Positions 10,750 to 51,900 are shown, counted from the first letter of the stretch. The stretch: 64,000 nucleotides of DNA from a bacterium (GCA_037129835.1 JBAXUE010000005.1:13975-77974), one strand, 5' to 3'. The notes: a model not told the origin generated them from the sequence alone. Program-made: numbers and translations.

Positions 10750-11285
10750 CAAATATATAGTAAAATCCCATCTTGTGCGCGATAGCGCACGTATATATTT
10801 GGTGGGGTAGTTTTAACTACTAGAACGACTTAATTAATCTCGGTAACAGGGGTGGGCGCGCGCATGAAATGGGGGTGCGTGCTCATTTCTCCCTTGCGGA
10901 GATAATAGTTAAGTAAGTGGGGGTGAAAGGCCCTTCCCTGCCACCAATTTCCCTATCTGCCACTTTATGTGGTTTGTACCTGTCGCTTTTGCGACGAAAC
11001 TAGGCTTTCCTCGTCGAGAATCTCTCGACGAAAGAAAGAAGCCGTCTTCGGTTGAATGGTCGCAGGGCGATCAGAACCTAACTGACGGCGTCAGTAAGTC
11101 TCTTTCGGCTTTCGCCGGCCGCTTGAGAATCTGCTCTCTGTGTCGGCGGGTACCAGAACCCCTGGCACGTCAGTGCGCAAACGATGCAAGTATTTGCTCG
11201 CAAACCGCACACTGGCCCCAAAGGTCTTCGCTTGAGTAATCAGCGAAGGCCCGAGGGGCCTTTCGCATTAAAATATTAGATTTTT
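10750..11285. other. GC-rich hairpin-dense non-coding island; candidate structured ncRNA (unassigned)
   Basis: ~55% GC against ~35% background. Many perfect short hairpins (CGTCGAGA-atc-TCTCGACG, CTGACG-g-CGTCAG, GTCGC-tttt-GCGAC, CCAC-tttat-GTGG, GGCCC-gag-GGGCC). Only a 90-aa low-complexity ORF. No RNase P P4 or SRP consensus found. Confidence 0.3.
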
Positions 11286-11509
11286 GTCATCCTTGCGAAG
11301 GCGAGGATCTCTGAGGTAATAAGAATTAATTTGATTTTGATTATTTTCTATTATCTATTTTCTCTTGAAAAAAAATGGAGTTAAGTTCAAGAAAAATCGA
11401 ACTCCTTCGTCTCTGCACTGAATTTTCAAACAAATTGAATAATTCCTTACATTCGACGATAGTTGGGTGTGTGGCACCGAAGCGATTTTTCATAAAAAGT
11501 AAAAGAATA

Positions 11510-12223
11510 TTACCTAGGTTTTTTAATAGCCGTCGTGGTAAGATTCGGTCCTAATAAAAACCAAAATTTATGTTTAAATCCAGATGTTTGGATTTGAGTA
11601 AATCCTGTTTTCCTTAAGAGCTGTTTCATCTCTGTTTTGGTCCAAGCATGAAAGTACCTGGTAGTCGTAACGATCGTGTCTGATCTTTTCCAAGGCATAA
11701 AAAAATCTCCAAGTGGGAGCTTGTTATCTGATAAGAAAGAGGCCCGGATTTGTTTGAGATATTTCGATTTATTCCAAAAATACCAATTTGTAAAAAATAT
11801 TTGTCCTCCTGGTCTAAGTATTCTTGATATCTCTTTGAGAGCTTCTATTCGTAACTCCTTACTCGGAATGTGGTGAAGAGTAGCGATACAATAGATGACA
11901 TCAAATTGGCCGTCTTCAAAAGGAGTTTTGAGCAGATTGCCAGCCACAAAATCGCCTTTTGGATATTTATTTTTGGCGATTTTGATTAAGTCGGGGCTTA
12001 GATCAAGTCCTGTATATCGAGCACCCTTCGACGTAAGGAATTCGTAAAGACGTCCATTTCCACATCCAAGGTCTAGAACATTCATATTTTTGAGCGCAAA
12101 TGATTCCGTGGCTTTTTCTATATCCGCCCATACATAATAACGAGTCCTAGAAAAGTGTTCCGATATTAGGTTATAATCATCACGGGTCTTAGTTATTAAA
12201 TTGTGAGCATATTTTTTATTCAT
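11510..12223 (-). CDS. class I SAM-dependent methyltransferase
   Basis: VLDLGCGNGRL (motif I) and DVIYC (motif II). Confidence 0.75.
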   Translation of the reverse strand: MNKKYAHNLITKTRDDYNLISEHFSRTRYYVWADIEKATESFALKNMNVLDLGCGNGRLYEFLTSKGARYTGLDLSPDLIKIAKNKYPKGDFVAGNLLKTPFEDGQFDVIYCIATLHHIPSKELRIEALKEISRILRPGGQIFFTNWYFWNKSKYLKQIRASFLSDNKLPLGDFFMPWKRSDTIVTTTRYFHAWTKTEMKQLLRKTGFTQIQTSGFKHKFWFLLGPNLTTTAIKKPR

Positions 12224-13901
12224 GAATATTAAAGAAGAAATTATTTATAAATTATTGGAAGCAAAAGCTTGTACACGAGGCGATTTTACTCGTGTGGTCG
12301 CTTCGGTGTATAAAAATGATAACACAAGCGGGTACCATTCGAATATGGAATTACGTTCTACGTACCAAATGCTTGTTGATTCTGGCGATATCGAAATAAA
12401 CGAAAACCTAGAAAAACTACTGATCACCAAAAAGATGCGTTCGCTCTCTGGAGTCTCCGTTATCACAGTTCTAACGAAACCGTATCCTTGCCCGGGTAAC
12501 TGTATATATTGCCCTACTGTAAAGAATGTTCCAAAGAGCTATTTGCCAGATGAGCCGGCAGTAATGAGGGCAATTCTCAATGATTATGACCCCAAGAAAC
12601 AAGTAGAAACTAGGATGGAATCCCTGGTCGGGCAAGGCCATCCTGTTGAGAAGGTGGAGTTAATCATAATAGGCGGTACTTTTTCACATTTACCCAAATC
12701 TTATCAGGAAGAGTTTGCGAAAAGTTGCTTTGATGCGCTAAACGGAAGCGTGTCAAAAAATTTGGTGGAGGCCAAAAAGTTAAATGAATTATCTATATCT
12801 CGATGTGTTGGCTTAACATTGGAAACCAGGCCTGACCATATTACAAAAGAAGAGGTGAAATGGTTTCGATATCTGGGCGCTACCAGAGTTGAGTTAGGTG
12901 TCCAAACTATCTATAACAATATTCTGCAGTTAAATAATCGTGGTGAAAAAATAGAAGACACTGTTCGAGCGACGAAACTGTTAAAAGACGCTGGATTTAA
13001 AATTTGTTATCACCTGATGCCAAATCTTTATGGCTCAGATTTGAAGAAAGATAAGCAAATGTTTGTTGAAATTTTCAACAATTCAGATTTTTGTCCAGAC
13101 TACATCAAAATATATCCCTGTATGGTAATTAATGGCACTGAACTATATAAACTTTGGCAAGAAGGAAAATATACATCATATACAGATGAAGAGTTATCAG
13201 AATTAATTTGCGATATCAAAAGAGAAGTACCTTATTGGATTAGGATTATGAGAACTATCCGTGATATTCCTGCGGGTAATATAGAATCAGGCTCTAAGGT
13301 GTCCAATATGCGCCAAAACATCCTTAAACAGGCAGAGGATGAGGGCTGGAAATGTCATTGTATTCGCTGTCGTGAAATTGGCGCAGGTCCGGCTTATTCT
13401 TCTTCGTCATCCTCATTCGAGCCTGAGCGAAGAGGTTCTCAGGCCTCAGAGCCGAATGGCCTGGTCACAAACCCAGGGATCTCTGACGGTCCATCCGAAG
13501 GAGATCTTCACCTTCGTAAGGATGACAAACCGATTATGTTTACAGACAAATACGATGCCAGTGAGGGAACAGAATACTTCTTAAGTTTCGAAGATGAAAA
13601 AAGAGAAAACCTTTATTCCTTACTCAGATTGAGATTAACGAACAACCAAACTATTGATGCTATTAGAAACTGCGCGATTATTCGAGAAGTACATACATAT
13701 GGTAAGGAAGTTGAGATTGGCAAAAAGGGGGACAATCAACACAAAGGATATGGCAGAAGGTTGATTGAAGAGGCTGAGAAGATTGCTAAATCTAATGAAT
13801 ACAAACAGATAGCGGTAATATCGGGGATCGGTGCCCGCGACTATTATCGCAAATTTGGTTATGAAGTTGTAGGCGAATACATGGTTAAAGAGTTGACATA
13901 G
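12222..13901 (+). CDS. Elp3-like radical SAM / GNAT acetyltransferase (tRNA wobble-uridine modification family)
   Basis: CPGNCIYCP radical-SAM cysteine triad, CHCIRCREIG, YDASEGTEYFLSFED and QHKGYGRRLIEEAE GNAT motif. Carries an in-frame ~120-bp GC-rich element (13405..13527). Confidence 0.8.
   Translation: MNIKEEIIYKLLEAKACTRGDFTRVVASVYKNDNTSGYHSNMELRSTYQMLVDSGDIEINENLEKLLITKKMRSLSGVSVITVLTKPYPCPGNCIYCPTVKNVPKSYLPDEPAVMRAILNDYDPKKQVETRMESLVGQGHPVEKVELIIIGGTFSHLPKSYQEEFAKSCFDALNGSVSKNLVEAKKLNELSISRCVGLTLETRPDHITKEEVKWFRYLGATRVELGVQTIYNNILQLNNRGEKIEDTVRATKLLKDAGFKICYHLMPNLYGSDLKKDKQMFVEIFNNSDFCPDYIKIYPCMVINGTELYKLWQEGKYTSYTDEELSELICDIKREVPYWIRIMRTIRDIPAGNIESGSKVSNMRQNILKQAEDEGWKCHCIRCREIGAGPAYSSSSSSFEPERRGSQASEPNGLVTNPGISDGPSEGDLHLRKDDKPIMFTDKYDASEGTEYFLSFEDEKRENLYSLLRLRLTNNQTIDAIRNCAIIREVHTYGKEVEIGKKGDNQHKGYGRRLIEEAEKIAKSNEYKQIAVISGIGARDYYRKFGYEVVGEYMVKELT
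13405..13527. mobile_element. RPE-like palindromic element inserted in-frame in the Elp3-like gene
   Basis: GTCATCC...CTGGTCACAAACCCAGGGATCTCT...TTCGTAAGGATGAC with inverted termini. GC-rich, encodes an S/G/P-rich peptide. Near-identical copy inside the AlkD-like gene. Confidence 0.5.
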
Positions 13902-13986
13902 CCTAAAAATATGTTAAAATAATCATCGAGTGATTCTAATCGGAATCAACTGGTAACAAACCGCCTATTATAGGGAGGTAAACCCA

Positions 13987-14331
13987 ATGGGTTTCCTAGA
14001 TAGTATTCTCGAAGTCGTCAAGAAGGCAGCAGTTGCAGCCATAACTCCGATCGTTGAGATTAACGTTTTGAAGGAGGACAGCGCATATGTAGCTATCTAT
14101 ACGACGGTATTGCCGACGTCAGCTTTCGGGCACGAGTGCTACGTTATCCGTCAAGGAAACGCTGCAATCACTATTGCTGGCATGTCCCGCAATGCACAAG
14201 TTCGTCTCGAGGCAAAGGTTCGCGAGACGTTTCGCAACACCCCGGAACCCGGCCTTATGGCTTTTCTGGAGGAGATTGTTTCCACAATGAAAGAGCTCGC
14301 CAATGGCGGACGTCTCTCTGGAGCTATCTAA
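13987..14331 (+). CDS. hypothetical protein (GC-rich)
   Basis: GGGAGG RBS. ~52% GC. No motifs. Confidence 0.45.
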   Translation: MGFLDSILEVVKKAAVAAITPIVEINVLKEDSAYVAIYTTVLPTSAFGHECYVIRQGNAAITIAGMSRNAQVRLEAKVRETFRNTPEPGLMAFLEEIVSTMKELANGGRLSGAI

Positions 14332-14336
14332 TACGG

Positions 14337-14390
14337 GCCCACACCCAGCACTGCTTTGGCAGTCTGCTCCGTGTGGGCTTTCTGCTTTTT
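14337..14390 (+). terminator. terminator-like hairpin
   Basis: GCCCACAC...GTGTGGGC stem followed by TTTCTGCTTTTT. Confidence 0.45.
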
Positions 14391-14462
14391 CAGACTCGAC
14401 GTAATTGTGAAATTATGATATAATTTTGCAGTTACATTGAGTTATTCTTCGAGTTTAGGAGA

Positions 14463-14490
14463 AGTTCTCACTAAACGTTCGAACAATAAC
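14463..14490 (-). promoter_or_regulatory. AGTTCTCAC-TAAAC-GTTCGAACAATAAC motif copy (reverse orientation), 20 nt upstream of typA
   Basis: Reverse complement reads ATTGTTCGAAC-GTTTA-GTGAGAACT, the same family as 2031/2343. Confidence 0.45.
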
Positions 14491-14510
14491 TTTTTATTTT
14501 GGAGAAAACT

Positions 14511-16328
14511 ATGAATATTAGAAACATCGCGATAATTGCTCACGTTGACCATGGCAAGACCACTCTTGTTGATGGCTTTTTGAAACAGACTAAACTTTTT
14601 CGTGAAAACGAAGCCTTGATGAGCCAATCTCTCATTATGGACTCTAGTGATCAAGAGCACGAAAGAGGTATTACAATAACTGCAAAGAATACCGCGGTTG
14701 TTTATAATGAAATTAAGATAAATATTGTCGATACTCCAGGCCACGCTGATTTTGGTGGCGAAGTTGAACGTACTCTAAATATGGCAGATGGCGCGATACT
14801 CGTTGTTGACGCCCAAGAAGGCCCAATGCCTCAGACTAAGTTTGTTTTACGTAAAGCCCTCGAACTGGGTCTCAAAATGATAGTTGTTATCAATAAAATC
14901 GACAAAAAAGATGCCAGAGTCGGCTACGTTATAGATAAAATACATGATCTCTTTCTTGATCTTGCGACCGATATGGATCAGCTTGAGTTTCCTGTATACT
15001 ACGCCATTGCCAAAGAAGGTAAATCTTGGGCAGAGATGCCAAATGATTTCTCAGAGCCAGCCGACTTGTCACCGATTTTTGATGCAATTATAAAATACAT
15101 CCCGGCACCAGATGCTGACAAAAATAAACCATTCCAGATGTTGGTAACCACTCTTGAGAGAGACAGCTACCAAGGCAAGTATGCTATTGGTAGAATTACT
15201 CGTGGATTCGCAAAACCAGGTCAGTCAGTAACTCTTATTTCTCGCGATGGTACAGTGGAAAACACACGAATTGATAAAGTATATATCAGCCAAGGTCTAA
15301 AAAAGGTTGAAGTGGTAACAGCAGAACCTGGCGACATTGTTTCACTTACAGGTATTAAAAATGCCTGTATCGGTGATACTTTGGCCGACTCTACCTTACC
15401 AGAAGCTTTGCCGACAATATCTATAGAAGAGCCGACTCTCAAAATGTCGGTTTCTGCGAATACTTCTCCTTTTGCAGGACGCGAAGGAAAATTTGTTACT
15501 GGACGTCAGATTTTGGACCGTATCAACAAAGAACTGGAAATAAACGTTTCATTAAAAATGGAAATTGGCGAAGAAGGCGATTACATCCTCTCGGGCCGCG
15601 GCGAACTACATTTGTCGGTATTCATCGAAACTCTACGTCGTGAAGGTTTTGAGCTTCAGGTTGGTAAACCCCAAGTAATTGTAAAAGAAATAGATGGCGT
15701 TAGGTGTGAGCCAGTTGAAGAATTAACAGTAGACGTAGCCACTGAATATGTTGGAGCCGCTACAGGTGAAGTTGGTCGCCGAAAAGGCGTTTTACTCGCC
15801 CAGCTTGATAATTCTGACGGAACAAGCCGTCTCGATTTTGAGATTACTACTCGTGGTACTTTGGGTCTCAGAAACCAGCTTCTTACTATGTCCAAGGGTA
15901 CTGCTGTGACAAATTCACTGTTTTTGCGCTTTGATCCTCTTGGTGGTTCTATGCCTAGATTACGAAACGGCGTTCTTATCGCTTCCGAATCGGGCAAAGC
16001 GGTTACTTATGGCCTTAATAATGCTCAGGCAAGAGGGACGGTATTTATCGGACCACAGATACAAGTTTATACAGGCATGATTGTCGGATTAAACACGCGC
16101 GATGAGGATATAGAGATAAATGTTACTCGTGAGAAAAAATTAACGAATACTCGGGCATCTGGCTCAGATGATACTCTTGCCCTGACTCCTCCAACTATTT
16201 TTAGCCTAGAGCAGTCACTAGACTTTCTTGAAGACGATGAGCTTCTAGAAGTGACGCCAGTAAGTCTGAGACTTAGAAAAAAATATTTAGATGGAAACGT
16301 GCGCAACCGATTGCGCAAAAGTAGCTAA
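14511..16328 (+). CDS. typA: translational GTPase TypA/BipA
   Basis: [31 protein letters not shown] and NKID G-motifs. ATG with GGAG RBS. Confidence 0.85.
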
Positions 16329-16369
16329 TACTAACTTAACACGTTAAGCCCATTACAAACTTTATTTCC

Positions 16370-16398
16370 TTGACAAGGGTATTAAGTGTTATTAAGCT
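16370..16398 (+). promoter_or_regulatory. candidate promoter TTGACA-N17-TAAGCT
   Basis: Shares ...GTTATTAAGCTTA... with the promoter of the paralogue at 17767. Confidence 0.35.
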
Positions 16399-16440
16399 TA
16401 GACTAATAACCCTCGTACTTAGTGATTTTAAAGGAGGAAA

Positions 16441-17688
16441 ATGGCTACTGAAGAAGATAAAGGAATTAAACCGCTAGAGGCTGTAGAAACAACTGATAAT
16501 ATGGAGTTCGCCCCAGCCAAAAAAGAAAAACTCAAAATACCCAAGAACTTATTTATACTGCTTCTAGTATGTGTCATCACAATACCAGGAGCATATTTAC
16601 TTTATAGATCATTTGCTTCAGTAACTCGGACGTTGGTTTGGAGCGACGAATTTGACGGTACTGCATTAAATTTAACTAATTGGAGAATGACAGCTCCTTG
16701 GGGAAATGTCGTCAATCCAAATGCAAAAGAACTAGAACACTATTATCCTAAAAATGTAACAGTTAGCGACAGTAACTTAAAATTTAATACAACTAACCTC
16801 GGAACAGATATTACTTATCCTTATGAATCAGGGGTAGTCACAACTAATTCCAAGTTCGGATATGGATACATCGAAATGAGAGCAAAGCTCCCAAAAGGAC
16901 AAGGAATCTGGCCGGCTCTATGGATGATTAATTTCGAAGACACTCACGAAATAGATATTTTCGAGATGCTTGGGAACGAACCAAATAAAGTATATATGAC
17001 ATATCATAATACCAATCAAGAAGTTTACCAATCTGAATATATTGGACCAGATTTTTCTGCTGACTATCATATTTTTGCGGTAGACTGGCAACCAACTTCA
17101 ATCACTTGGTATATAGATGGAGTCCAGAGAGGTCAATATACTGGGGCCATCAAGCCTGACCCTTTGTTTATTTGTGCAAATACTGCAGTTGGAGGTCTTT
17201 GGCCTGGTTCTCCAGATAGTACGACAGTATTCCCACAAAATTATTACATTGATTATATTAGATATTATCAACAGACTGATGCTGTCATCCCTACCCCCAC
17301 TTCTACACCTTCACCAACCGTTGCTCCCACGGCTACTCCGACCCCTACTCCTACACCAACCCCTACTATTACTCCTATTCCTACGCCCACTAAAGTTCTA
17401 ACACCCACCCCTACAATTACCCCAATGGCCGTTTCCATCTCAAGTCCCTTGAGCGGAGGAAAAGTAAGTACTACATCTCAGATTATTAAAGCAACCGTAA
17501 CAGGGCCTTATGCTGTCAAATCAGTAGTGTTCTATATAGACGGAGTAGTTAAGTCAACTGTAACTAAGTCCCCATATTCTTATACTTGGAAAACAACATC
17601 CGTTACTAGGGGAACCCATATTATCAAGGTCCAAGCTACTGATTCATTAGGCCGAACAGCCTACAAGCAGATAATAGTAACCAGATAA
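16441..17688 (+). CDS. glycoside hydrolase family 16 (beta-glucanase/laminarinase-like), membrane-anchored, PT-linker + Ig-like C-terminal domain
   Basis: HEIDIFEM matches the GH16 E-x-D-x-x-E catalytic motif. N-terminal signal-anchor. PTPTPTP linker. Confidence 0.75.
   Translation: MATEEDKGIKPLEAVETTDNMEFAPAKKEKLKIPKNLFILLLVCVITIPGAYLLYRSFASVTRTLVWSDEFDGTALNLTNWRMTAPWGNVVNPNAKELEHYYPKNVTVSDSNLKFNTTNLGTDITYPYESGVVTTNSKFGYGYIEMRAKLPKGQGIWPALWMINFEDTHEIDIFEMLGNEPNKVYMTYHNTNQEVYQSEYIGPDFSADYHIFAVDWQPTSITWYIDGVQRGQYTGAIKPDPLFICANTAVGGLWPGSPDSTTVFPQNYYIDYIRYYQQTDAVIPTPTSTPSPTVAPTATPTPTPTPTPTITPIPTPTKVLTPTPTITPMAVSISSPLSGGKVSTTSQIIKATVTGPYAVKSVVFYIDGVVKSTVTKSPYSYTWKTTSVTRGTHIIKVQATDSLGRTAYKQIIVTR
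17309..17681 (+). repeat. 373-bp direct repeat copy 1 (PT-linker + Ig-like domain coding)
   Basis: Identical by eye to 19979..20351. Confidence 0.85.
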
Positions 17689-17766
17689 TTTATCTTTGTG
17701 AGGAAGATGATACATCTTGGTCTTGATAAACGCGGCTATTTTTCCCTTTAATTAAACAAAAAATCA

Positions 17767-17795
17767 TTGACAACGATAGTGCATGTTATTAAGCT
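17767..17795 (+). promoter_or_regulatory. candidate promoter TTGACA-N17-TAAGCT
   Basis: Same architecture as 16370. Confidence 0.35.
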
Positions 17796-17835
17796 TAATC
17801 TAGTAACATGTATTATTGTATTTTGAAGGAGGACA

Positions 17836-20358
17836 ATGGCTACCAAAGAAGAAAAGGTAATTAAACCACCAAAGTCTATAGAGACAACCGACAAGATGCT
17901 CGTCTCTCCTGTCAAAAAGAAACTAATGATACCCAAAAACTTTTTAATACTGCTTCTAGTATGTGTCATCACAATACCAGGAGCATATCTACTTTATAGA
18001 TCATTTGCCTCGGTTGGGACACAAAGTACGACAGCTACTAATACGGTCGATAGTATCAATTACCCCAGAACGGTAGAATATTGGAAGGACTATACTGCAG
18101 CAGAAAGGGCCAAGGTAGACCTGCTTATTATGGAACCATATCAATATCCAACCGAAACAAATGCTGTTAGAGCGCTTAATCCAGCTACTAAGATAATGCT
18201 TTATGAAGACATTGTAGAGTTTGATTATAATGCCAATGTAGCACCAACAGAATATGTAAATGAGCGTCTAAACGAAGGTTCTACTGATTGGATATTGACT
18301 CAGGTGGGGACTACCTTATCGGCAAGTGTTGATGCCACAACGACCACTATCCCTGTGACCGAGACAACGAAACTTAACGGTACGACTACCGTAGCTTTGT
18401 TCAAAATTGGTGAGCTTGCATTAGTCGATCACGAATTAATGAAAATCACAGCAGTTGGCACTAATACAATAACAGTCCAAAGAGGAGTTGTTAAAAAGGC
18501 GGCTGTACATGCAGCTGGTGTTCGAACAGCGGCCTGTGTAACTTTTTGGCCAGGCAGTGTAGTAACCGATATGACCAAAGCTAGTTTAGCTGTAGATCTC
18601 GGTACCGGCTTCGGACCAGAAACATATTACCAGTGGCGGGCAAGAGTGACGGGGACTAGAGCGGTTACAGAAAAATGGGACGGTGTTTATATGGATAGGG
18701 CAGATGGCAATGAGTCGTGGGTAATATCAACTGGTTATGCTAGAAGCTTTGATCAGGCTCGTACCAATACTTTTGTATCAGACAAATATGCTGCTTTTAA
18801 CACCTCTTGGAATGATGGTGAGATGCTTTATTATAAAGCCCTTAGAGCCAAGGTTGGAGTAGATATGCCGATTTTTGGTAACAGGGCTATCACAGGCTCC
18901 GCGGATATAAACGGTAGTTTAATGGAGGGATTTCCAGATAGTCAGATAAGTTCAAAGTCATGGCATGATATGATTGTTGGTCCCAACCTAGTCGCGGGTA
19001 GAGATGTTACTGGGACTTCTGTAATAGCTCCATATTTTAATTGGGTGAAAAATTCAAGAGATCCAAAATTGAATATAATCAATACTTACGAATATGAAGA
19101 CGGTACCAGCACTACAAATCCTTTTATTGATCCTAATTTTAAACGAAATTATCAGAAAATGAGATTTGGGCTGACAACTACCCTTTTGGGAAATGGCTAC
19201 TATGGTCACTTCTCGGGGATAACGGCTAAAAGCAACGGCTTTGCTTGGTTTGATGAATATGACAATGCTGGAGCGGGCAAAGGGTATCTTGGCCAGCCGA
19301 TTGGCGATGCTTATCAAGTTATCCCATCTCTTACGACTCCAGATCTAGTTAACGGAACTGGCACTTTTAATACACAAGCGCAACTTGATAGTTGGGAGCT
19401 GTATAACCGAGCTGGCTATGCATCGACAAAAACCCTCGATTCCGGCGCGGCTAAAATAAATATTACCGCAGCGGCTGGAAGCTTTAACGGAGTAGGTTTT
19501 TCATACCAGCCTTTTCCCATTACTGTTGGAGTAGAATATACTTTAACGTTTAGAGCAAAGGCTGATAAAGTTGTTAATATATATGCTTCTGCAGAGAAGA
19601 ATAATCCCTGGGGCTTCTTAGCAGAGTATGATGATCTTGGTCTTACTACAGATTGGCAGACTTTCAATATCCCTGTTAAGGCAATTGATTCAAGCACCAC
19701 TGGGACTATGAATTTTCTGCTTGGTGGAACCACTGGCACTATCTGGCTCGACGACGTCAAGCTTCAGGAAGGAAACCGTGAAGTCTACCGTCGTGACTTT
19801 ACTAACGGCATCTCTCTAGTAAATCCCACCGAATCTGCCGTCACTATACCTCTCGGTGGTAATTTCCGTAAAATCAAAGGGACTCAAGTTCCATCTATTA
19901 ATGACGGTTCTATAGTATCGTCAGTTACTCTTCAACCAAAAGATGGGATAATCCTTCTGCGAGAATCTGTCCCTATATCTTCACCAACCGTTGCTCCCAC
20001 GGCTACTCCGACCCCTACTCCTACACCAACCCCTACTATTACTCCTATTCCTACGCCCACTAAAGTTCTAACACCCACCCCTACAATTACCCCAATGGCC
20101 GTTTCCATCTCAAGTCCCTTGAGCGGAGGAAAAGTAAGTACTACATCTCAGATTATTAAAGCAACCGTAACAGGGCCTTATGCTGTCAAATCAGTAGTGT
20201 TCTATATAGACGGAGTAGTTAAGTCAACTGTAACTAAGTCCCCATATTCTTATACTTGGAAAACAACATCCGTTACTAGGGGAACCCATATTATCAAGGT
20301 CCAAGCTACTGATTCATTAGGCCGAACAGCCTACAAGCAGATAATAGTAACGAAGTAG
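17836..20358 (+). CDS. membrane-anchored putative glycoside hydrolase with CBM4/9-like carbohydrate-binding module, PT-linker and Ig-like C-terminus
   Basis: N-terminus nearly identical to the GH16 paralogue. Central TIM-barrel-like region (WDGVYMDRADG). CBM-like segment (WQTFNIPVKA...GTIWLDDVKLQEG). Hydrolase family not assignable by eye. Confidence 0.55.
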   Translation: MATKEEKVIKPPKSIETTDKMLVSPVKKKLMIPKNFLILLLVCVITIPGAYLLYRSFASVGTQSTTATNTVDSINYPRTVEYWKDYTAAERAKVDLLIMEPYQYPTETNAVRALNPATKIMLYEDIVEFDYNANVAPTEYVNERLNEGSTDWILTQVGTTLSASVDATTTTIPVTETTKLNGTTTVALFKIGELALVDHELMKITAVGTNTITVQRGVVKKAAVHAAGVRTAACVTFWPGSVVTDMTKASLAVDLGTGFGPETYYQWRARVTGTRAVTEKWDGVYMDRADGNESWVISTGYARSFDQARTNTFVSDKYAAFNTSWNDGEMLYYKALRAKVGVDMPIFGNRAITGSADINGSLMEGFPDSQISSKSWHDMIVGPNLVAGRDVTGTSVIAPYFNWVKNSRDPKLNIINTYEYEDGTSTTNPFIDPNFKRNYQKMRFGLTTTLLGNGYYGHFSGITAKSNGFAWFDEYDNAGAGKGYLGQPIGDAYQVIPSLTTPDLVNGTGTFNTQAQLDSWELYNRAGYASTKTLDSGAAKINITAAAGSFNGVGFSYQPFPITVGVEYTLTFRAKADKVVNIYASAEKNNPWGFLAEYDDLGLTTDWQTFNIPVKAIDSSTTGTMNFLLGGTTGTIWLDDVKLQEGNREVYRRDFTNGISLVNPTESAVTIPLGGNFRKIKGTQVPSINDGSIVSSVTLQPKDGIILLRESVPISSPTVAPTATPTPTPTPTPTITPIPTPTKVLTPTPTITPMAVSISSPLSGGKVSTTSQIIKATVTGPYAVKSVVFYIDGVVKSTVTKSPYSYTWKTTSVTRGTHIIKVQATDSLGRTAYKQIIVTK
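19979..20351 (+). repeat. 373-bp direct repeat copy 2
   Basis: Identical to 17309..17681. Confidence 0.85.
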
Positions 20359-20481
20359 TCAATTTTAGCTTAATAAACCTTTATAACAATCTTATTTCTG
20401 TTGCCAAAAAGACGATTTTGTACTATAATGCCATGGCAAAACAGGAAAACAACATATTGTATGAGAGGGGGTTGATCCTGA

Positions 20482-20766
20482 GTGGTACCTATATATCTAG
20501 ACACGGGCGTTGTGTCGGCCGGAAGAATTGCTGTTGTCACCGCGCTTCCTATTTGCGAAGACGGTAACTTCAGTGCCATTACTACGAGTAGGAGAGTGGA
20601 GCTGCTCAGTATTTGCGATCGAGTAGCCCTGGTAAACCTAAGTGGTGAATTGTGTGTTGCAAGTACGGAACCAGGGTTTGAATACTTGCTGATGCTTGAT
20701 GCGAGGATAGTCATCCTGGGGGACCAACAGTGGGCCTTCATTGATAATATCCCTACGGCGAATTGA
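20482..20766 (+). CDS. hypothetical protein (GC-rich island)
   Basis: GTG start with GAGAGGGGG RBS. Competes with an antisense ORF at 20370..20741. Chosen because it is co-oriented with the next gene. Confidence 0.3.
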   Translation: MVPIYLDTGVVSAGRIAVVTALPICEDGNFSAITTSRRVELLSICDRVALVNLSGELCVASTEPGFEYLLMLDARIVILGDQQWAFIDNIPTAN

Positions 20767-20782
20767 AGGGAAGGTACATACG

Positions 20783-21226
20783 ATGAGTGATAGACCAGTA
20801 ATGCACTATCCTAGCCAAGAAGAGTTAGATCATCTCGAGGAATTGACTGTTGAGATCTCTGCACAGGCAGCGATACTCTACGGTCAGCTTCGCCGGCATG
20901 GTACGAACGTCGAGTTCGGGCTAGACGACTTCAGCGGTTGCAATACCACAACACGGCTTTTTGATGCTATCGACAAGATACGTACCAAGGGCCCGATCAA
21001 CGAAGTACTTGCATTCACCAACTGGATTGGTGAAGTGAAGCCTCATGCTCATGGCATATCTAACCAGTTTGACCAGGAGATCGAGCGATTTAGCGGGCAG
21101 CTTCTGACGCTACTCGAGGGAGATCTAGTATCGTCCGAGGATGCGCCATTCTTTTGGCGGACACTGTTGGTTCTAGTTAGCGCCGGCGTCGAGTCGGACA
21201 TCGTATCCAACATGCACTACTTGTAG
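20783..21226 (+). CDS. hypothetical protein (GC-rich island)
   Basis: ATG with GAAGGGAAGG RBS. ~50% GC. Confidence 0.5.
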   Translation: MSDRPVMHYPSQEELDHLEELTVEISAQAAILYGQLRRHGTNVEFGLDDFSGCNTTTRLFDAIDKIRTKGPINEVLAFTNWIGEVKPHAHGISNQFDQEIERFSGQLLTLLEGDLVSSEDAPFFWRTLLVLVSAGVESDIVSNMHYL

Positions 21227-21347
21227 TGCTATAGACCCAGCTGGGTCGGCAATAAGCGAAGGCTTGTCCGATTCGGGTGGGCCTTTTGCTTTTAATAAAT
21301 GTAAAATAAATGTACAATCAAAACATACTATATGTGAGGTAATATTC

Positions 21348-21578
21348 ATGGCACGGGAAAATTCAGATTTTGACCACGAAGACTTCAAAGAAAATGAACA
21401 TCAAAGTAGGCTACGACTTGATAAGTTGAAACGTACCTGGGGAATTAGTAACGCCGAGGAGCGCAAGGGAATGATTTTATCTGCAAAAAGTTATTTATCT
21501 AAGTATAAAACTTCCAGAGACCCAAATGAGCAAAGCAAAATTGATGCCTATAATGATTTTTTGAATTTATATAAATAA
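21348..21578 (+). CDS. small hypothetical protein
   Basis: Internal ATG of track ORF 21264..21578. K/E-rich. Confidence 0.35.
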   Translation: MARENSDFDHEDFKENEHQSRLRLDKLKRTWGISNAEERKGMILSAKSYLSKYKTSRDPNEQSKIDAYNDFLNLYK

Positions 21579-21714
21579 GATAAAGTGAGGTATATTTATT
21601 TTTAATAATCAATGGTTAATCTATAAGTTATCGCAGTTTTCGCTAACAAAGAGAGATTATAAGCAGGCGTTTATATTTTCTATATGCATATCTGCTATAT
21701 ATTTTTTTTATACA

Positions 21715-22263
21715 ATGTTTTTGTACAAGATGATGCCAATATTATATGAAAATATCGTTTTGGCAAATGATTACTTTTCGGCCTCGTTATTTAAGAATGT
21801 TAATTTTGGCTACTTCCCGATTGTTATAGCTTGGGTTATGGTGATTTTAGTCATATTTTTCACATATTTATTTATAGCTGATTTTTTTAAGGAATTAAAA
21901 AAAATATCAATTCTTGAGACAGAGACTATCGTACATGGCAGGCCGCTGTCAAAAAATATTGCCTTAAGAAAAATGTATTTAAAGTTTTCTATACTCTTTG
22001 GAATCATTTGTACTTATTATCTAAGTGTTTATCTAGTATTCCCATCGGTAATCAATGTTATAGTATTTACCAGAACGTTTATTTTGGATTTTACCTGGTA
22101 TATACAATTGGTTATATTATTCATCATTAGTGCTTTATTGTGGTTTGTGTATTTCCTGATACTATATTATATAAAGAATATGGTTGCCTATGAGAAACAC
22201 GTTCTTTATCTGGACATCAACCATGACGCGACGCTTCCTGCGGAAGAGACTTTTGAAGATTAA
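21715..22263 (+). CDS. hypothetical membrane protein (4 TM)
   Basis: Hydrophobic helices. No motifs. Confidence 0.5.
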   Translation: MFLYKMMPILYENIVLANDYFSASLFKNVNFGYFPIVIAWVMVILVIFFTYLFIADFFKELKKISILETETIVHGRPLSKNIALRKMYLKFSILFGIICTYYLSVYLVFPSVINVIVFTRTFILDFTWYIQLVILFIISALLWFVYFLILYYIKNMVAYEKHVLYLDINHDATLPAEETFED

Positions 22264-23943: not shown

Positions 23944-24468
23944 ATGGAAACTAAAGAAAGTTATTTAAAGGATCTAATGGGTCATGTAATGCAAATCATC
24001 TACATGATATTTTTAGGTGTTATCATCGCCCTCTTCTTTGGCTTAGGCATTGATACTTTTTATCCAGGGCCTAAAGAACCACTATATCCAACTATTTTGC
24101 AGGAAAAACAATATCAGTCATCCCCGACCATTCAAACTGTTGAAGAAAAAGTTGTTGAAAAAAAATTTAATCAAGAGATGGACCAATATAATAAAGACTT
24201 AAAGCCATATAGCCGGAACGTATCTATTATTGCAATTGTTCTTTCTATTGTTGCACTGATTCTTAGCCTCACAGTTCTTATCCGTTGGGAAGTGATAGCA
24301 AACGGAGTGATGCTTGGTGGTGTATTTACTTTGGGATATAGTATTATTATGGGAGCGCAGGCCGATGATCCAAAATTTAGATTTGCGATTATCACGGTTG
24401 GCGTCGTAATAGCGTTTGCTCTTGGATATTACAAGTTTATTTTACCAAACAGAGAACTTAAAAGATGA
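23944..24468 (+). CDS. hypothetical membrane protein
   Basis: Three or four TM helices. Confidence 0.5.
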   Translation: METKESYLKDLMGHVMQIIYMIFLGVIIALFFGLGIDTFYPGPKEPLYPTILQEKQYQSSPTIQTVEEKVVEKKFNQEMDQYNKDLKPYSRNVSIIAIVLSIVALILSLTVLIRWEVIANGVMLGGVFTLGYSIIMGAQADDPKFRFAIITVGVVIAFALGYYKFILPNRELKR

Positions 24469-45942: not shown

Positions 45943-48900
45943 GTGAGGGTAATGAAACCTAGAAAAGCTCAATTCAGAGATGAACGAAAACGAGCTATGG
46001 TCAGACCTTCTGTGTTTGCTTATTTTAGTGTACGTAAAATATTACAAAAGGTTAAAAATTGGGCTTCGGAGAGCTATTTTGTGAGGTTATTCAGAACTTA
46101 TCGGTTATCCCCAGTGATGTTTGGAAAATCTAGGTCTCATAGGCAATTTAAGCCTCAAAAGGTGAGAATATCTATTATGAAGCGAATCCGTTTGTTTTAT
46201 TTTGAGTTATTATATCTACCACACCTCTTTGCTAGAAAACCGCACGACACTGCCTATAAGAATATTAAAATATATAAAAAATACATGGATCATCCTGCTT
46301 CGGGTCCGATAAACCGTTCTGTTGTGGCTGGGTTCTTGGCTTCGACCCTGATATTTTTGACACTTCAATATGTAATGCCAAATGTATTTAATCTTTTTAC
46401 CCCCAATAGGGTAGAGGCATCATCAACGCCGATAACTTGGACCAGTAATGCCGATTTCAATACAAATGCAGTGACCACTGGGACAGCCACCACTATATCC
46501 TCAACTAACGCGACCCCGAACATTATTGTGAGCAATAATCAAATGAAATTGAATACTGGCGCTGGGGTACCCATAGTCCAAACAAGTACATTTACAGTAC
46601 CGGCACTTGTAACAAGTATTAGTGTAAATATCTCCGGCGGCGGCGGCGGAGGTGGTGGTGGGGGTTATAGTTCTCGTCTTAGACAATATTCTGGTACTGC
46701 TGGAACTGCAGGTACTTTTTCAAGTATTAATGTCGGAGGGATGACATTTACTGCAAATGGTGGTAGTGGTGGTGGTGGTGGTTCCCCAAATACAACTACG
46801 CCTGGAGCAAACGGGGCTAGCGGTAGCACTCCTTTCAGCGGATATCCATCGCTAAGTGGGATTCCTGGCGGCGGTGCTGTCGGTGGAGCAGGTGGATCAG
46901 CATATGCCGCCATGTATATCGCTAGTGCTGGCGGAAGTGGCGGTGCTGGGGGAGTAATAACTGGCACAATTTCAGTTACGCCTGGTCAAGTCGTAACATT
47001 AGTTACTGGGATAGCGGGTCAAGGCGGCACAAGCCAGTCTTATTCTGGCTCTGGCTCTAGCGGCGGGGCTGGTTTATCTCAGGTAACTTACATATTGCCA
47101 TATAGACCAAGCGGCAATATTTCTGGACTAAAAGTAGATGCTGGTAATGGTGTGAACTATAACTGGGAAAGCATCAATTGGAAATCACAATCCTTGCCCG
47201 CAGATACTTCTATCTCTTTTCAAGTCAGAACTAGTGATAATAATGCAAACTGGTCGGCTTGGGGTGGTCCCTTTACCCAAACTGTGGCTGGTAGTATCTC
47301 TGGAACGGGCAGTATTTCTAGTATGGCGATGTCTCGATATTTAGAAATATATATAATCTTAAATTCACCATTGCAATACTCAACGCCCATCCTTGACGAA
47401 TTTACAATAAACCACAATTCTGTCGAGGCGCCCCTGAATAATGCGACGACACTTTCAAGGATAAATAATGTAAGGTTAAAAAAGTCGACAGGTGGCGAGT
47501 TACCCGCAGGTTCACCAGGAGGAACTACGAGTGAGACCGGCATAAAAGTCACTACAACTGGTCTAAGCTGTGTCGGATGTGCAGTCTCTTATAATCCTTT
47601 TGTCGAAGTGGAATACAAACCAGTCGGGACGGCATTTGACGGCGCTACCAATCTCTTTACGGGTACGGCTGATGGTACTAATACATCTGTGGCAACCATA
47701 AGTGGCCTTCCTACGAGCACTAGCTATCATCTGCAGATGAGGGCTAGAGATGCTCAGGGCAGGGCTTCTAATTGGGTACCATATGGCACGGCTCCAGAAA
47801 ATATTAATGAAGCAGATTTTATTATCGATCATGTTTCTCCTATAGGTTCGATTACTGGTTGGAAATCTAAAACTAATGTAGCAAATGTCTTGTATGGAGA
47901 TAAATACTACGCATCATCGCGAGATATTAAGATTGCTTTTACCGCAACAGATGCCGGTGGCTCGAATCTATCACATGTTCAATTTTCTAATGACGGTAAT
48001 AGCTGGGGGAGTGTAGCTTTGGCAAATGGGGTTGATGGGTTACCAAACACGATTGATGATGTATATACTTTTGTTTCTGACGGAACTAGTCCGATCACGG
48101 GTGCTTATTATGCTGGAGATATTCCTTGGCAGCTTACAGCAAATGACGGTCAAAAGTTAGTCTATTATAGAGTGGTTGATAATGCGAATAATCAAACACC
48201 TTCGTATGTTTGGAGTGTACAACAAGATTTCAACGGTATAACGCAAGGGACACTGGCTACGCTGAATAATATTGATCTCGTTACAAATCCAGACTCAATC
48301 GGAATCTCTACTTTATCGACACCGATCGTTCAAACTTATAGTACGCCTGGTGATTATAGTTTTGCTGTACCTGCTGATGTCGTGACGATGTCTGTTGAGG
48401 TTATCGGTGCTGGAGGCGGAGGTGATACACCAACTACTGGTGGTGCCGGGGGTCCATCGACATTGAGCATAAATGGAAATCCTTCATATTATGTGACTTC
48501 AAATGGTGGTGCAGGCGGTGGAGTAGTGGGAGGGACTTCGGTCGGTGGGTTTGCGGGGCTTACAGCTATAGATGGTCAAGGCGGTGCTGGTGGTGCTACT
48601 GGAACTGAATCAACATTTGTTCCAGCGGGCCCAGACTATGATGATTGTGACCCCCCTAATATAATAGGTTGGCATGATGCGCATTGGGACACTGTTTACT
48701 ATTCAAATGGCGGTGCGGGGGGTAAAGTAACAGGGAATATAACTCCAGTTACAGTGGCGGGGCAAACCTTATCTATAAATGTTGGTGCAGGTGGTGTGGG
48801 GGCAACCGATAGTGCTCCGGATAGTACAAACGCCGGTAATGGTGATAACGGGAGTATTAAAATTACTTATACTACACCTAGCGCTTTTCTGAAAGGAACT

Positions 48901-51900
48901 ATAGGAAATACCGGTGTCGGATTGCGAGTCGGTGATGAGACGAACGGGGTAAAACAAACATGGTCTAGCATGAACTGGTCAGCGACAGGCTTGAGTGCTC
49001 TAAATAAAATTGGCGTCAAGGTACGAGCTTCCGATGTATATGGCAGTGGAAGTTACGTAAATCCATCAAATAATACTAATAGTTTTTATTATTTAAGCTC
49101 TGGAACCTCCGGAGTGATTCCAATATCAGCAAGTATATCTAAGACGAAAACAATTGAAGTTCAGCTAGAGCTCAATGGAGATGGTCTGACCTCGCCGATA
49201 CTAAATGATCTATCTATATCTGCTCTACAGGATCCATCAGCAATCACACTAGAAAGTATTGCACCAACAGGAACGGTAGTCGTAAAGGACGCCACTACTA
49301 GTAGTACTACGTATGCAAAATCCAAAGCTGTTAAGCTTATCATGACTTCTTCGGATGCAGGTTCGGGGGTTAAGGATTTTCAGGTTTCAAATGACGGGAC
49401 TAACTGGGGTACATATACTGATGCAAGTGGAGTAATCTTGGATACAGTAGGAAACTGCACTACTCCAAAAAGTTGGGACGAGACAACCTTAACTTGTTTT
49501 AAGCCTTGGGATTCTTCCTATAGTTCCACGGGCTATACTGCCTGGAGCCTTGGTGGATCAGACGGGCCAAAGACTATTTATGTACGTTACCGAGACAACG
49601 CAGGTAATATTTCTGGTGCGTCAGGATTATATACAACGCCGAATACATACAGCTATACTGTACCGGCAGGTATTACTAGTCTGTATGTGGACATAATGGG
49701 TGGCGGTGGTGGTGGTTCAGCTCCTTACTTTACCTCTGGTTTTGGGGGTGGTCCATCGTCGATAACTGTTGGAGCTAGTACTTATACTGCAGCAGGGGGC
49801 TGTGGTGGTAGTGGTGAGTTTGGACCTGGAACTTGTTCTTCTTTGCCAACAAATAATATTGGATTAACAGTTGTTACTGGCGGCGGCGGTGTTGGTGGAG
49901 CACCAGAGTGTTCTGACGGTTGCGGTGAACCGGGGGCTCCTGGGGATAGAGTCTATGGAAATATCAATGTTACCCCTGGTCAAGTGATAACACTTATAGT
50001 TGGCGCTGGGGGTCTTCCTGGTGGGGGTTATGATGGGGAGCCATTGCCAGGTTCAGCTGGTTCAATTTCTTACAACGTTGGTGCAAAAGCAGATATTGTC
50101 CTTGACACTGCTGGTCCAACAGGAGGCACGATAACCTCCCCTGACGGTTTTATCACCGCTACTTCAAATGCTCTAGTGGTTAACGATGGCACAGATACAG
50201 CTAGCGGAGTTGATACAGCCACAAGGAAAGTCCAACGAAAATCAGCCACACTTTCTGCTGGCGTTTGTGGCAGTTATGGTTCCTTCGCCGATATTACCAC
50301 TACTGGAACTTATCCGAACTTTGTTGATGGGACAATCGCCTCAGATAACTGTTACCAATACCAATATTTGGTTTCTGACAAGGCCGGTCACCAAACTATT
50401 TATACAAGCACTGGTATTGCAAAGGTGGATAATGCCGGTCCTGCGGGTGGTTCTATCTCATATAATAGTGGTTATTTTACCGCTACCTCAATAGCCCTAA
50501 CTGCAAGTGATGGCACAGATACAGCTAGTGGTGTGAATATCGCAAGTAGAATAATGCAAAGAAAATCAGCAACGCTCTCGGCAGGAACATGTGGAGCATA
50601 TGGGTCATTCGCGACCATTACTCCTACCGGGTCTTATCCGAACTTTACAGACACGACGGTTGTAAATGCGAACTGTTACCAATATCAATATCTAGTATCA
50701 GATAATTCTGCCAATAGAAAGACCTACACCACAACAAATGTAGCAAGGGTGGATACGGTCGCTCCCACTACTACGGGTTCTATTACAGCCGGTACGACGG
50801 GAGCTAACGACTGGTACAAAGAAGATAATGTCACATATACTCTCATTCCTGCAGATGTAACTTCGACGGTGGCAACCACTATGTACTGCTTGGACACAAT
50901 CGGCAACTGTAGCCCAACCACAGTATTAACGACACCATTTCATATCACTCTTTCAACGGAGTCAGCGACAAACCATATACGTTACAAATCAACTGATAAT
51001 GCTGGGAATGTACAGACTGTTGTAGATTCCGGAGTTATCAAGCTAGACAAAACGGGACCAAACGGTTCGGTAACAGTAAATAGTGGTGATAAGGCCACCA
51101 ATGATCCTGAATTAAAAGCAAACCTAGCCTTTACTCTCAATGACTCACTTTCTGGTGTTGAGAAATATCAGATAGATAATAATGATAATGCTTGGCTACC
51201 ATCCACTCCTGTTGATATATCTACTTCGGGTGCTTCTATGTCTGGTACTTACCCAAATTGGCAGCTAGCACCTGCTGGTGATGGTAGAAAAGTAGTAAGA
51301 ATAAAACTTACCGACCTCGCTGGTAATGAGGTAACTAATATAACCAATTGGATTGCTTATGATACGACACCGCCAAGTTCTGTAAACACGATAGTTGTAA
51401 AAAACGGAGATAATCTTTCACAAACACTAGAAGCAAATGGACACTCGCAGGGATGGTATACATATAATAAACCACAGTTCAACTTTGGCGCCGTCGATGA
51501 TGAATCGGGTATCAAGGAATTTAAATATTGTTTCTACCGAGCTGCAGATGAGAACTGCGACTATAGTGTTAACACGCCAATACCAGCGATAGAAGAAGGG
51601 GAGACAAGTACCTATAAAGCAAACTATATGCCGACTCTTACGGACTTAAGACAAGGTGCTTTAACCTTTAAGGTAAAGGGTGTCGACTATGTCGGCCTCG
51701 AGTCTCCTGTTGCAACATATATCTATAAATATGATGTGACCTTACCAGGTAGGGTATCTGGTTTTTCCGCTTCGAAGGGAACAGAAGAAACAACAGTAAA
51801 GCTTACTTGGAATGTGGCAAATATTGATACTGGATACCAGGCGCCTATAGAACAATACAAGATTGAGAGACTGCTTGCATCCGAATATACCAGCGGACTC

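Follow-up and report, generated by a model that had tools for sequence, protein, structure and literature searches.

An identical 373-bp 3' module in two adjacent glycoside hydrolase genes of an uncultured Patescibacteria bacterium points to recent gene conversion

In Cellvibrio japonicus (Pseudomonas fluorescens subsp. cellulosa), the adjacent genes for xylanase B and arabinofuranosidase C were reportedly found by Kellett et al., in 1990, to encode identical cellulose-binding domains. The pair is said to combine unrelated catalytic domains with an identical module and linker, the module there being N-terminal and cellulose-binding. In the glucan degradation locus of Caldicellulosiruptor, the expansion of modules has been ascribed to recombination following duplication, and its repeats are a source of unintended deletions (PMC7142884). 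More generally, in a prokaryote-wide survey, concerted evolution is defined by paralogues which are alike within a lineage and differ between lineages (PMC6053082). Here, we describe two adjacent genes (gene 1 and gene 2) located in a 64,000-nucleotide stretch of DNA (GCA_037129835.1 JBAXUE010000005.1:13975-77974, hereafter called the window) from an uncultured bacterium of the Patescibacteria (candidate phyla radiation, CPR), both proteins being found in NCBI on a 115.8-kb contig of a metagenome-assembled genome (MAG). The two genes encode predicted glycoside hydrolases of distinct families, GH16 and GHL15, and end with the same 373-bp module, which has probably been homogenized by gene conversion.

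A base-by-base comparison at an offset of 2670 revealed one unbroken run of 373 identical bases shared by positions 17309-17681 in gene 1 (R1) and 19979-20351 in gene 2 (R2), both on the + strand, exactly as claimed by the original prediction. Mismatches at 17306 and 17308 bound this run on the left and mismatches resume at 17682 on the right, while blastn aligns the 3' modules over 379 nt at 99.5% identity. R1 and R2 are direct repeats, 2,670 bp apart, and each encodes the last ~37 residues of a Pro/Thr linker followed by an 87-residue Big_7 domain, R1 ending two codons before the stop. The predicted PTPTPTP linker and immunoglobulin (Ig)-like domain are thus present, but the domain is the 87-residue Big_7 after the linker rather than a unit of ~110 residues. 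Its assignment to Big_7 (PF17957, cut-off 24.1 bits) is given by scores of 50.6 bits in gene 1 (E 3.1e-13) and 49.2 bits in gene 2. In the AlphaFold model of gene 2, the fold of this domain is not confidently predicted (predicted local distance difference test, pLDDT, < 50) because the rows of the alignment lack it. When compared by BLASTP to distant proteins combining either GH16 and Big_7 or GHL15 and Big_7, the domain shows 32-39% identity to both and does not indicate its original owner. The identity of the 3' modules extends to synonymous sites, with 0 differences over 373 positions versus 21% in the 5' modules of the same genes. Although the two genes had been called paralogues, they are mosaics: their end modules are shared but their catalytic cores have unrelated folds, and therefore only the end modules are paralogous.

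Comparison contigs from other samples were reached through cluster members of both proteins. They include a related lineage (lineage B, the window lineage being A) in which the same two modules are distinguishable, which supports the claim of very recent gene conversion in the window. In lineage B, one contig (L002, JGI 3300021074) covers window positions 15875-20295 and carries both 3' modules, and a second one (L001, JGI 3300021473, window 17564-20371) is the same as L002 at every shared site. Relative to the window, lineage B has 3 differences in the ~3.7 kb of unique cassette, 6 in R1 and 30 in R2. Between its own R1 and R2 copies (B_R1 and B_R2), 30 of the 116 linker sites differ, compared to only 2 of the 257 Big_7 sites (Fisher p 9e-15), and the B_R2 linker, unchanged in length, has diverged by substitutions only (~26%), near the 21% divergence of the 5' modules. 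All the linker differences fall within 92 nt of unique sequence. Within the window, the R2 linker has 0 differences to R1; this common linker differs from B_R1 at 4 of 116 sites and from B_R2, the orthologue of R2, at 26. Being closer to B_R1 than to B_R2, it suggests the GH16 gene as the donor. Furthermore, at two pairs of positions, 17598/20268 and 17675/20345, one base is found in both window copies and another in both lineage B copies; as these sites are alike within a lineage and differ between lineages, they reveal concerted evolution.

Collectively, these data make it quite probable that an old duplication was followed by recurrent gene conversion between the direct 3' repeats, the latest tract having passed from gene 1 to gene 2 in the window lineage. 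The locus would consist of two mosaic genes, each having its own promoter, encoding an extracytoplasmic glycoside hydrolase and being assembled from a 5' module, a catalytic body unrelated to that of its neighbor and a 3' module. Both the 5' and 3' modules would derive from the old duplication, the 5' modules being ~21% apart and the lineage B linkers 26%. R1 and R2 would then have been homogenized repeatedly via non-reciprocal homologous recombination (i.e., gene conversion), the latest tract covering at least 373 bp and being copied most likely from the GH16 gene to the GHL15 gene, with R2 as the probable acceptor and with erasure of the linker divergence. As direct repeats, R1 and R2 would also permit the deletion or amplification of gene 2 and confuse short-read assemblers.

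Several points weigh against this reading. The middle of the repeat, more than ~140 nt from either unique flank, is unphased and could contain hidden differences. The direction of conversion is drawn from one comparison lineage without outgroup, and the B_R2 linker may be the imported one. The concerted pattern is seen at just two sites, and the lineages come from metagenomes, in which strains may be mixed within a contig. Finally, promoter, export and enzymatic functions are predicted from sequence, and Pfam PF02018 (CBM_4_9) gives no match to gene 2 itself at E <= 0.1.

A different history, in which the 3' end of the GH16 gene was grafted once onto the GHL15 gene or the B_R2 linker was later imported from an unseen third donor, would involve no linker conversion in the window lineage. 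Without an outgroup the polarity could be reversed, and Big_7 is rare in GHL15 homologues, being found in 2 of 120 among the matches listed. In addition, divergence between lineages is 20-100 times higher in the R modules than in the unique cassette (6 and 30 per 373 nt versus 3 per ~3.7 kb), and therefore tracts were imported from somewhere. Within B_R1 (L002 and a further contig, L058), four changes are clustered in the 9 nt at 17408-17416 and are absent from the other three module copies; this private cluster resembles a micro-tract imported from elsewhere and also favors a graft or a reversed polarity. However, the B_R2 linker has the same length and ~26% of substitutions, similar to the ~21% of the 5' modules, as expected from the original duplication, and, as evidenced by the two concerted sites, this pair of modules undergoes conversion in any case. 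We therefore regard the graft or late import as unlikely and favor recurrent conversion from gene 1 to gene 2.

One can also envision that the second module copy, or its perfect identity, was made by the assembler, either by passing twice through a repeat node or by collapsing the consensus. Assemblers are indeed misled by the repeat. In a MEGAHIT contig (L004, k141, ENA), window 10750-17681 is joined directly to 20352-21858 and gene 2 is missing, while a contig of 2,792 bp (L003, JGI 3300021601) covers window 17583-20351 and then 17682-17704 again, which is one turn of the 2,670-bp unit. The predicted proneness of this site to deletion and assembly collapse is hence directly seen in two other assemblies, and contigs of the locus from other samples are short, ending in or beside the repeat. 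Against an artefact, L003 and L004 are 100% identical to the window and, in assemblies of other samples, the window-type linker adjoins each unique core at 100% identity, which is that of GHL15 in L003 and that of GH16 in L004. Likewise, L002 carries both distinguishable copies on one contig, which makes the tandem layout real in lineage B, and, near the left junction, the identical block common to lineages A and B is only 32 nt long, which does not allow a graph with k >= 99 to change path. Judging by the joins in L003 and L004, the 373-bp identity should not be an assembly artefact, an explanation which we consider highly improbable.

L003 and L004 are also exactly the products of recombination between R1 and R2. 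They could represent true variants generated by frequent structural variation, in which RecA-type recombination deletes gene 2, leaving an A-R-C arrangement, or amplifies it. L004 passes through a node with two entries and two exits at which MEGAHIT, as far as its behavior can be inferred, normally breaks, suggesting a low coverage of the gene 2 branch; moreover, the number of cassette genes in the slot after bipA varies from one to three among lineages. Nevertheless, de Bruijn assemblers commonly yield these same two contigs from an A-R-B-R-C layout, and an excised circle devoid of replication origin should not attain assembly coverage. Real and frequent variation of this kind is conceivable, though we rather doubt it, and it is compatible with gene conversion as the origin of the 373-bp identity.

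The comparison with lineage B further suggests a recent lateral exchange between related lineages. Within bipA, the inter-lineage identity rises from ~85% to ~99.9% and it drops back precisely where the 3' module ends. In L058, 51 differences to the window are found in 15575-15905 (15%, mostly at third positions) and none in 15906-17293 (Fisher p 1e-38), while to the right of 20351 lineage B (L056) matches the window at just 68-88%. The segment 15906..20351 (+ strand), which comprises the 3' end of bipA, gene 1 and gene 2, is thus ~4.45 kb long and ~99.9% identical between lineages whose flanks are 12-32% divergent, a pattern suggestive of recent exchange by recombination. L002 is devoid of the five differences present in L058 at 15875-15905, and the left boundaries of the two contigs differ; therefore, there are at least two recombinant haplotypes. 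A caveat is that metagenome contigs can be chimeric. Lineage-B-type single-nucleotide polymorphisms in R1 accompany the divergent bipA, which counts against a chimera. L058 also has a one-base deletion at window 17294, within a run of five C where the Pro/Thr linker begins, which splits GH16 from Big_7 into two open reading frames (ORFs; P0244 and P0243) and is either a sequencing error or a real frameshift.

The cassette occupies a variable slot located between bipA and a promoter-like site. As had been proposed as a check, its copy number was compared across relatives and amounts to one to three leader-bearing genes after bipA, by lineage. In the window lineage, the slot contains the GH16 and GHL15 genes, which are the only two window genes with the leader. 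Lineage B contains GH16, GHL15 and a third gene, X, directly after gene 2, and lineage C (~78% nucleotide identity in bipA) has only a related gene, X'. X, found at 2805-3505 in L001, 135-1395 in L006 and 219-1364 in L056 and L057, combines the private leader with a pair of NBR1-type Ig domains and a tandem Pro/Thr repeat, with no Big_7. Its promoter and the gene 1 promoter are identical over 38 nt. The unit PTGVAITITPTPIPS of the tandem repeat is present in three copies in L006 (396 aa) and two in P0249 (381 aa). X' also carries NBR1-type Ig domains. On the right, the slot is bounded by a promoter-like TTGCCA-17-TATAAT at 20401..20429 (+ strand, 11/12 consensus positions). This site (TTGnnA-17-TATAAT) is kept in all three lineages (A, B and C), whereas the adjoining sequence on the left cannot be aligned, and downstream of it lies a conserved hypothetical ORF of ~94-100 aa (20482-20766).

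The possibility that the window lineage lost a third gene through recombination between R2 and a third module copy was considered and rejected, since X ends without Big_7 and the window junction (20352-20395) cannot be aligned to the sequence following X. Outside these lineages, BipA shows 84-88% identity to MAGs labelled Patescibacteria or Saccharibacteria and 69-74% to Berkelbacteria. A BipA-based scan of genome contigs found relatives, none with the cassette within 6 kb of bipA, and a gene 2-based scan of genome contigs gave no match. In two of these contigs (L010 and L011), a homologue of window 23944-24468 lies within ~0.8 kb after bipA, so that window ~16.3-23.9 kb is a variable region. 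Tentatively, the slot from bipA to 20401 could be a strain-variable display locus of this CPR lineage, in which a private promoter/operator-leader module would export interchangeable bodies (GH16, GHL15 and NBR1-type Ig). It would be remodelled jointly by lateral exchange of the 4.45-kb two-gene segment, across lineages with flanks ~15% apart, by conversion of the common tail and by the repeat-driven loss or amplification of gene 2, L004 and L003 then being real variants.

The leader belongs to a 5' module which forms a second, older repeat. Copy 1 (16367..16622) and copy 2 (17764..18014), both on the + strand, share 79% nucleotide identity over 257 nt. Copy 1 comprises the promoter-like element, a Shine-Dalgarno sequence (AAGGAGG, 16431-16437), the ATG at 16441, a charged tail and a hydrophobic segment, and a strong Shine-Dalgarno sequence precedes the first ATG in both genes. 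The element TTGACA-N12-GTTATTAAGCTTA, predicted upstream of both genes, is indeed found with 0 mismatches at 16370 and 17767 and nowhere else in the 64 kb when up to 3 mismatches are permitted (0.05 chance matches expected). This agrees with a shared "promoter architecture" inasmuch as the element is present twice, but it is merely part of the duplicated 5' module. In gene 1 (16370..16410, + strand), it consists of TTGACA (16370-16375), a 17-nt spacer and TAAGCT (16393-16398), the same arrangement being present in gene 2 (17767..17807, + strand). A sigma-70 scan did not flag this shared element at its thresholds because TAAGCT fits just 3/6 positions, and the sigma-70/terminator scan yielded no convincing terminator between gene 1 and gene 2.

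An inverted repeat overlaps the promoter-like element in both genes, with the sequence GTTATTA-N9-TAATAAC in gene 1 (16388-16410, 0 mismatches) and GTTATTA-N9-TAGTAAC in gene 2 (17785-17807). It overlaps the -10-like hexamer of every gene with the private leader (also L006 ~154-176 and L055 ~455-477), and its arms are conserved while its 9-nt spacer is variable. GTTATTA-N9-TAATAAC is hence a candidate operator. Additional matches to the inverted repeat in the window (30448 and 63740) are within chance expectation.

Both proteins start with a 35-residue charged tail followed by a single hydrophobic segment. In gene 1, the latter spans about residues 36-55 (Kyte-Doolittle 19-residue mean 2.45), is the sole such segment of the protein and is directly preceded by the positively charged KKEKLKIPKN. 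The N-terminal ~60 codons had been described as nearly identical, which holds for the anchor region, the hydrophobic segment and the following ILLLVCVITIPGAYLLYRSFASV being identical in both proteins, but not for the charged tail; overall, the first 61 residues are 74% identical. After the hydrophobic segment, [ST]-F-A-[SAG] is conserved in all four members of the leader family, as is the promoter-like element upstream of their genes, and fits the -3/-1 rule. With this small-x-small site ([ST]-F-A), a cleavable signal peptide is possible. The "signal-anchor" of the original prediction is thus matched by the lone hydrophobic segment near the N-terminus and the positive charges which precede it, but anchoring itself stays putative. 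From these features, the 5' module is predicted to direct export, its charged tail being cytoplasmic, and probably to hold the protein at the membrane. An exhaustive hidden Markov model search with the 64-residue leader retrieved only four proteins among 1.84 billion representatives, namely gene 1, gene 2, X (P0249) and X' (P0248), and the 5' module appears private to this lineage.

Gene 1 (16441..17688, + strand) encodes a protein of 415 aa (MEI6266983.1, annotated in NCBI as 'family 16 glycosylhydrolase') with the leader, a GH16 domain (residues ~62-280), the Pro/Thr linker (281-328) and Big_7 (329-415). It matches Pfam PF00722 with 101.2 bits (cut-off 22, E 5.8e-29) and covers positions 13-174 of the 175-position profile. 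Among solved structures, its best relatives are laminarinases and endo-beta-1,3-glucanases (E 6e-39 to 1e-31), the first being the Thermotoga laminarinase 3azx (E 6.2e-39), whose EIDIME motif is aligned with EIDIFE at residues 170-175 of gene 1. The predicted GH16 core with its E-I-D-I-F-E motif is therefore borne out, and gene 1 is most readily read, by homology, as a GH16 laminarinase-type beta-glucanase with beta-1,3-glucan as a candidate substrate. Searches of gene 1 against NCBIfam equivalogs gave scores far under the cut-offs. Elsewhere, contig L054 (140-2469) contains a tandem pair of GH16 genes which share 62-64% identity with gene 1 and overlap at their stop and start codons. The C-terminal domains of this pair differ (CarboxypepD_reg-like and DUF5648), which is another instance of GH16 tail swapping.

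Gene 2 (17836..20358, + strand; MEI6266984.1 in NCBI) encodes a protein of 840 aa. Following the leader, it contains a TIM-barrel-like core (residues ~70-510) with an inserted beta domain (159-215), a CBM4-like beta-sandwich (~520-645), a second beta domain (~650-710), the Pro/Thr linker and Big_7 (754-840). Residues 266-492 match GHL15 (PF14885) with 40.6 bits (cut-off 27). More than 100 full-length homologues, 33-44% identical, carry PF14885, and most of them are also annotated with PF02018 CBM_4_9. GHL families are predicted TIM-barrel hydrolases and, as of 2017, were uncharacterised except for GHL1, reclassified as GH129, and GHL10, which was characterised in that study (PMC5765458). The AlphaFold model of gene 2, based on 46 homologues, has a mean pLDDT of 79.8 and is confident over residues ~70-710, mostly > 90, with alternating strands and helices. 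Foldseek relates the core to the TIM barrels of GH168 endo-1,3-fucanases (E ~3e-10, target TM-score 0.54-0.59) and residues ~520-645 to the CBM4 1gui (E 1.4e-11, target TM-score 0.74; phmmer E 1.2e-5). This best CBM4 match is the laminarin-binding CBM4 of Thermotoga Lam16A. Six candidate catalytic residues (D287, D306, E364, D473, E474 and D476) are invariant in the 46 homologues. The TIM-like core and CBM4/9-like module proposed beforehand are in line with these Pfam, AlphaFold and Foldseek matches. Gene 2 is thus modelled as a putative GHL15 enzyme with a TIM-barrel-like core and a CBM4-like binding module, which may act on a beta-glucan.

The sharing of a tail by these two enzyme families is found again in a high-GC lineage, in which the nearest GHL15 homologue, P0002 (L059 2665-5319), and a GH16 homologue, P0125 (L061 474-2147), share a C-terminal module with 45-55% identity (E 2e-47). 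This module is of another kind, consisting of cadherin-like repeats and a basic beta domain, and the genes do not neighbor each other on the contigs read. Tail sharing between GHL15 and GH16 therefore recurs.

As for the genomic setting, the window is a portion of bacterial chromosome (helicase, dinB, bipA, pyrG, pheST and gyrB) with almost all genes on the same strand, and tRNA and Rfam scans of it were empty. Further along, it contains a 3,222-aa ORF rich in FN3 and purple-acid-phosphatase-N-type domains (45943-55611), a VirD4/TrwB-like ATPase (56105-58585) and an ELP3-like radical S-adenosylmethionine (SAM) plus GNAT protein (12222-13901), which are typical CPR features.

In practice, the 373-bp repeat breaks or mis-joins short-read assemblies, one public contig being devoid of gene 2 and another forming a circle, be it false or true. 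At this locus, neither gene counts nor pangenome calls can therefore be relied upon for this lineage. The locus is also a clean and datable case of concerted evolution acting at the level of modules, in a CPR bacterium with a reduced genome. Furthermore, the link between the uncharacterised family GHL15, a laminarinase-type GH16 and a laminarin-type CBM4 leads to the hypothesis of a beta-glucan substrate for GHL15.

Compared to known systems, among which the Caldicellulosiruptor and Cellvibrio loci are its closest analogues, the locus exemplifies modular enzyme evolution clearly but is nothing out of the ordinary, and it does not overturn the current understanding. New here are the evidence for conversion gained by comparing lineages, a leader family which appears private, the variable slot after bipA and a segment probably exchanged between lineages. 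As in Thermotoga maritima Lam16A (3azx; CBM4-2, 1gui), a GH16 domain, aligned over its full length with the ExDxxE motif, occurs with a module whose nearest relative is the CBM4 of that enzyme, but here the GH16 and the CBM4-like module are on two separate proteins. Similarly to other bacterial paralogues under concerted evolution, such as rRNA operons and tuf genes (surveyed across prokaryotes in PMC6053082), paralogous tracts are closer to each other within a genome than orthologous tracts are across lineages, and they have sharp boundaries and divergent flanks. In contrast to rRNA and tuf, one module of otherwise unrelated genes is homogenized, and the tract length varies, from Big_7 only in lineage B to linker and Big_7 in the window. 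With Caldicellulosiruptor, the locus shares adjacent modular glycoside hydrolases which have different catalytic domains, near-identical repeated non-catalytic modules and Pro/Thr linkers. While the modules of Caldicellulosiruptor are CBM3 in multi-modular cellulases and xylanases, here they are Big_7 and a private leader around one catalytic domain each, in a small-genome CPR host and with a conversion backed by a between-lineage comparison.

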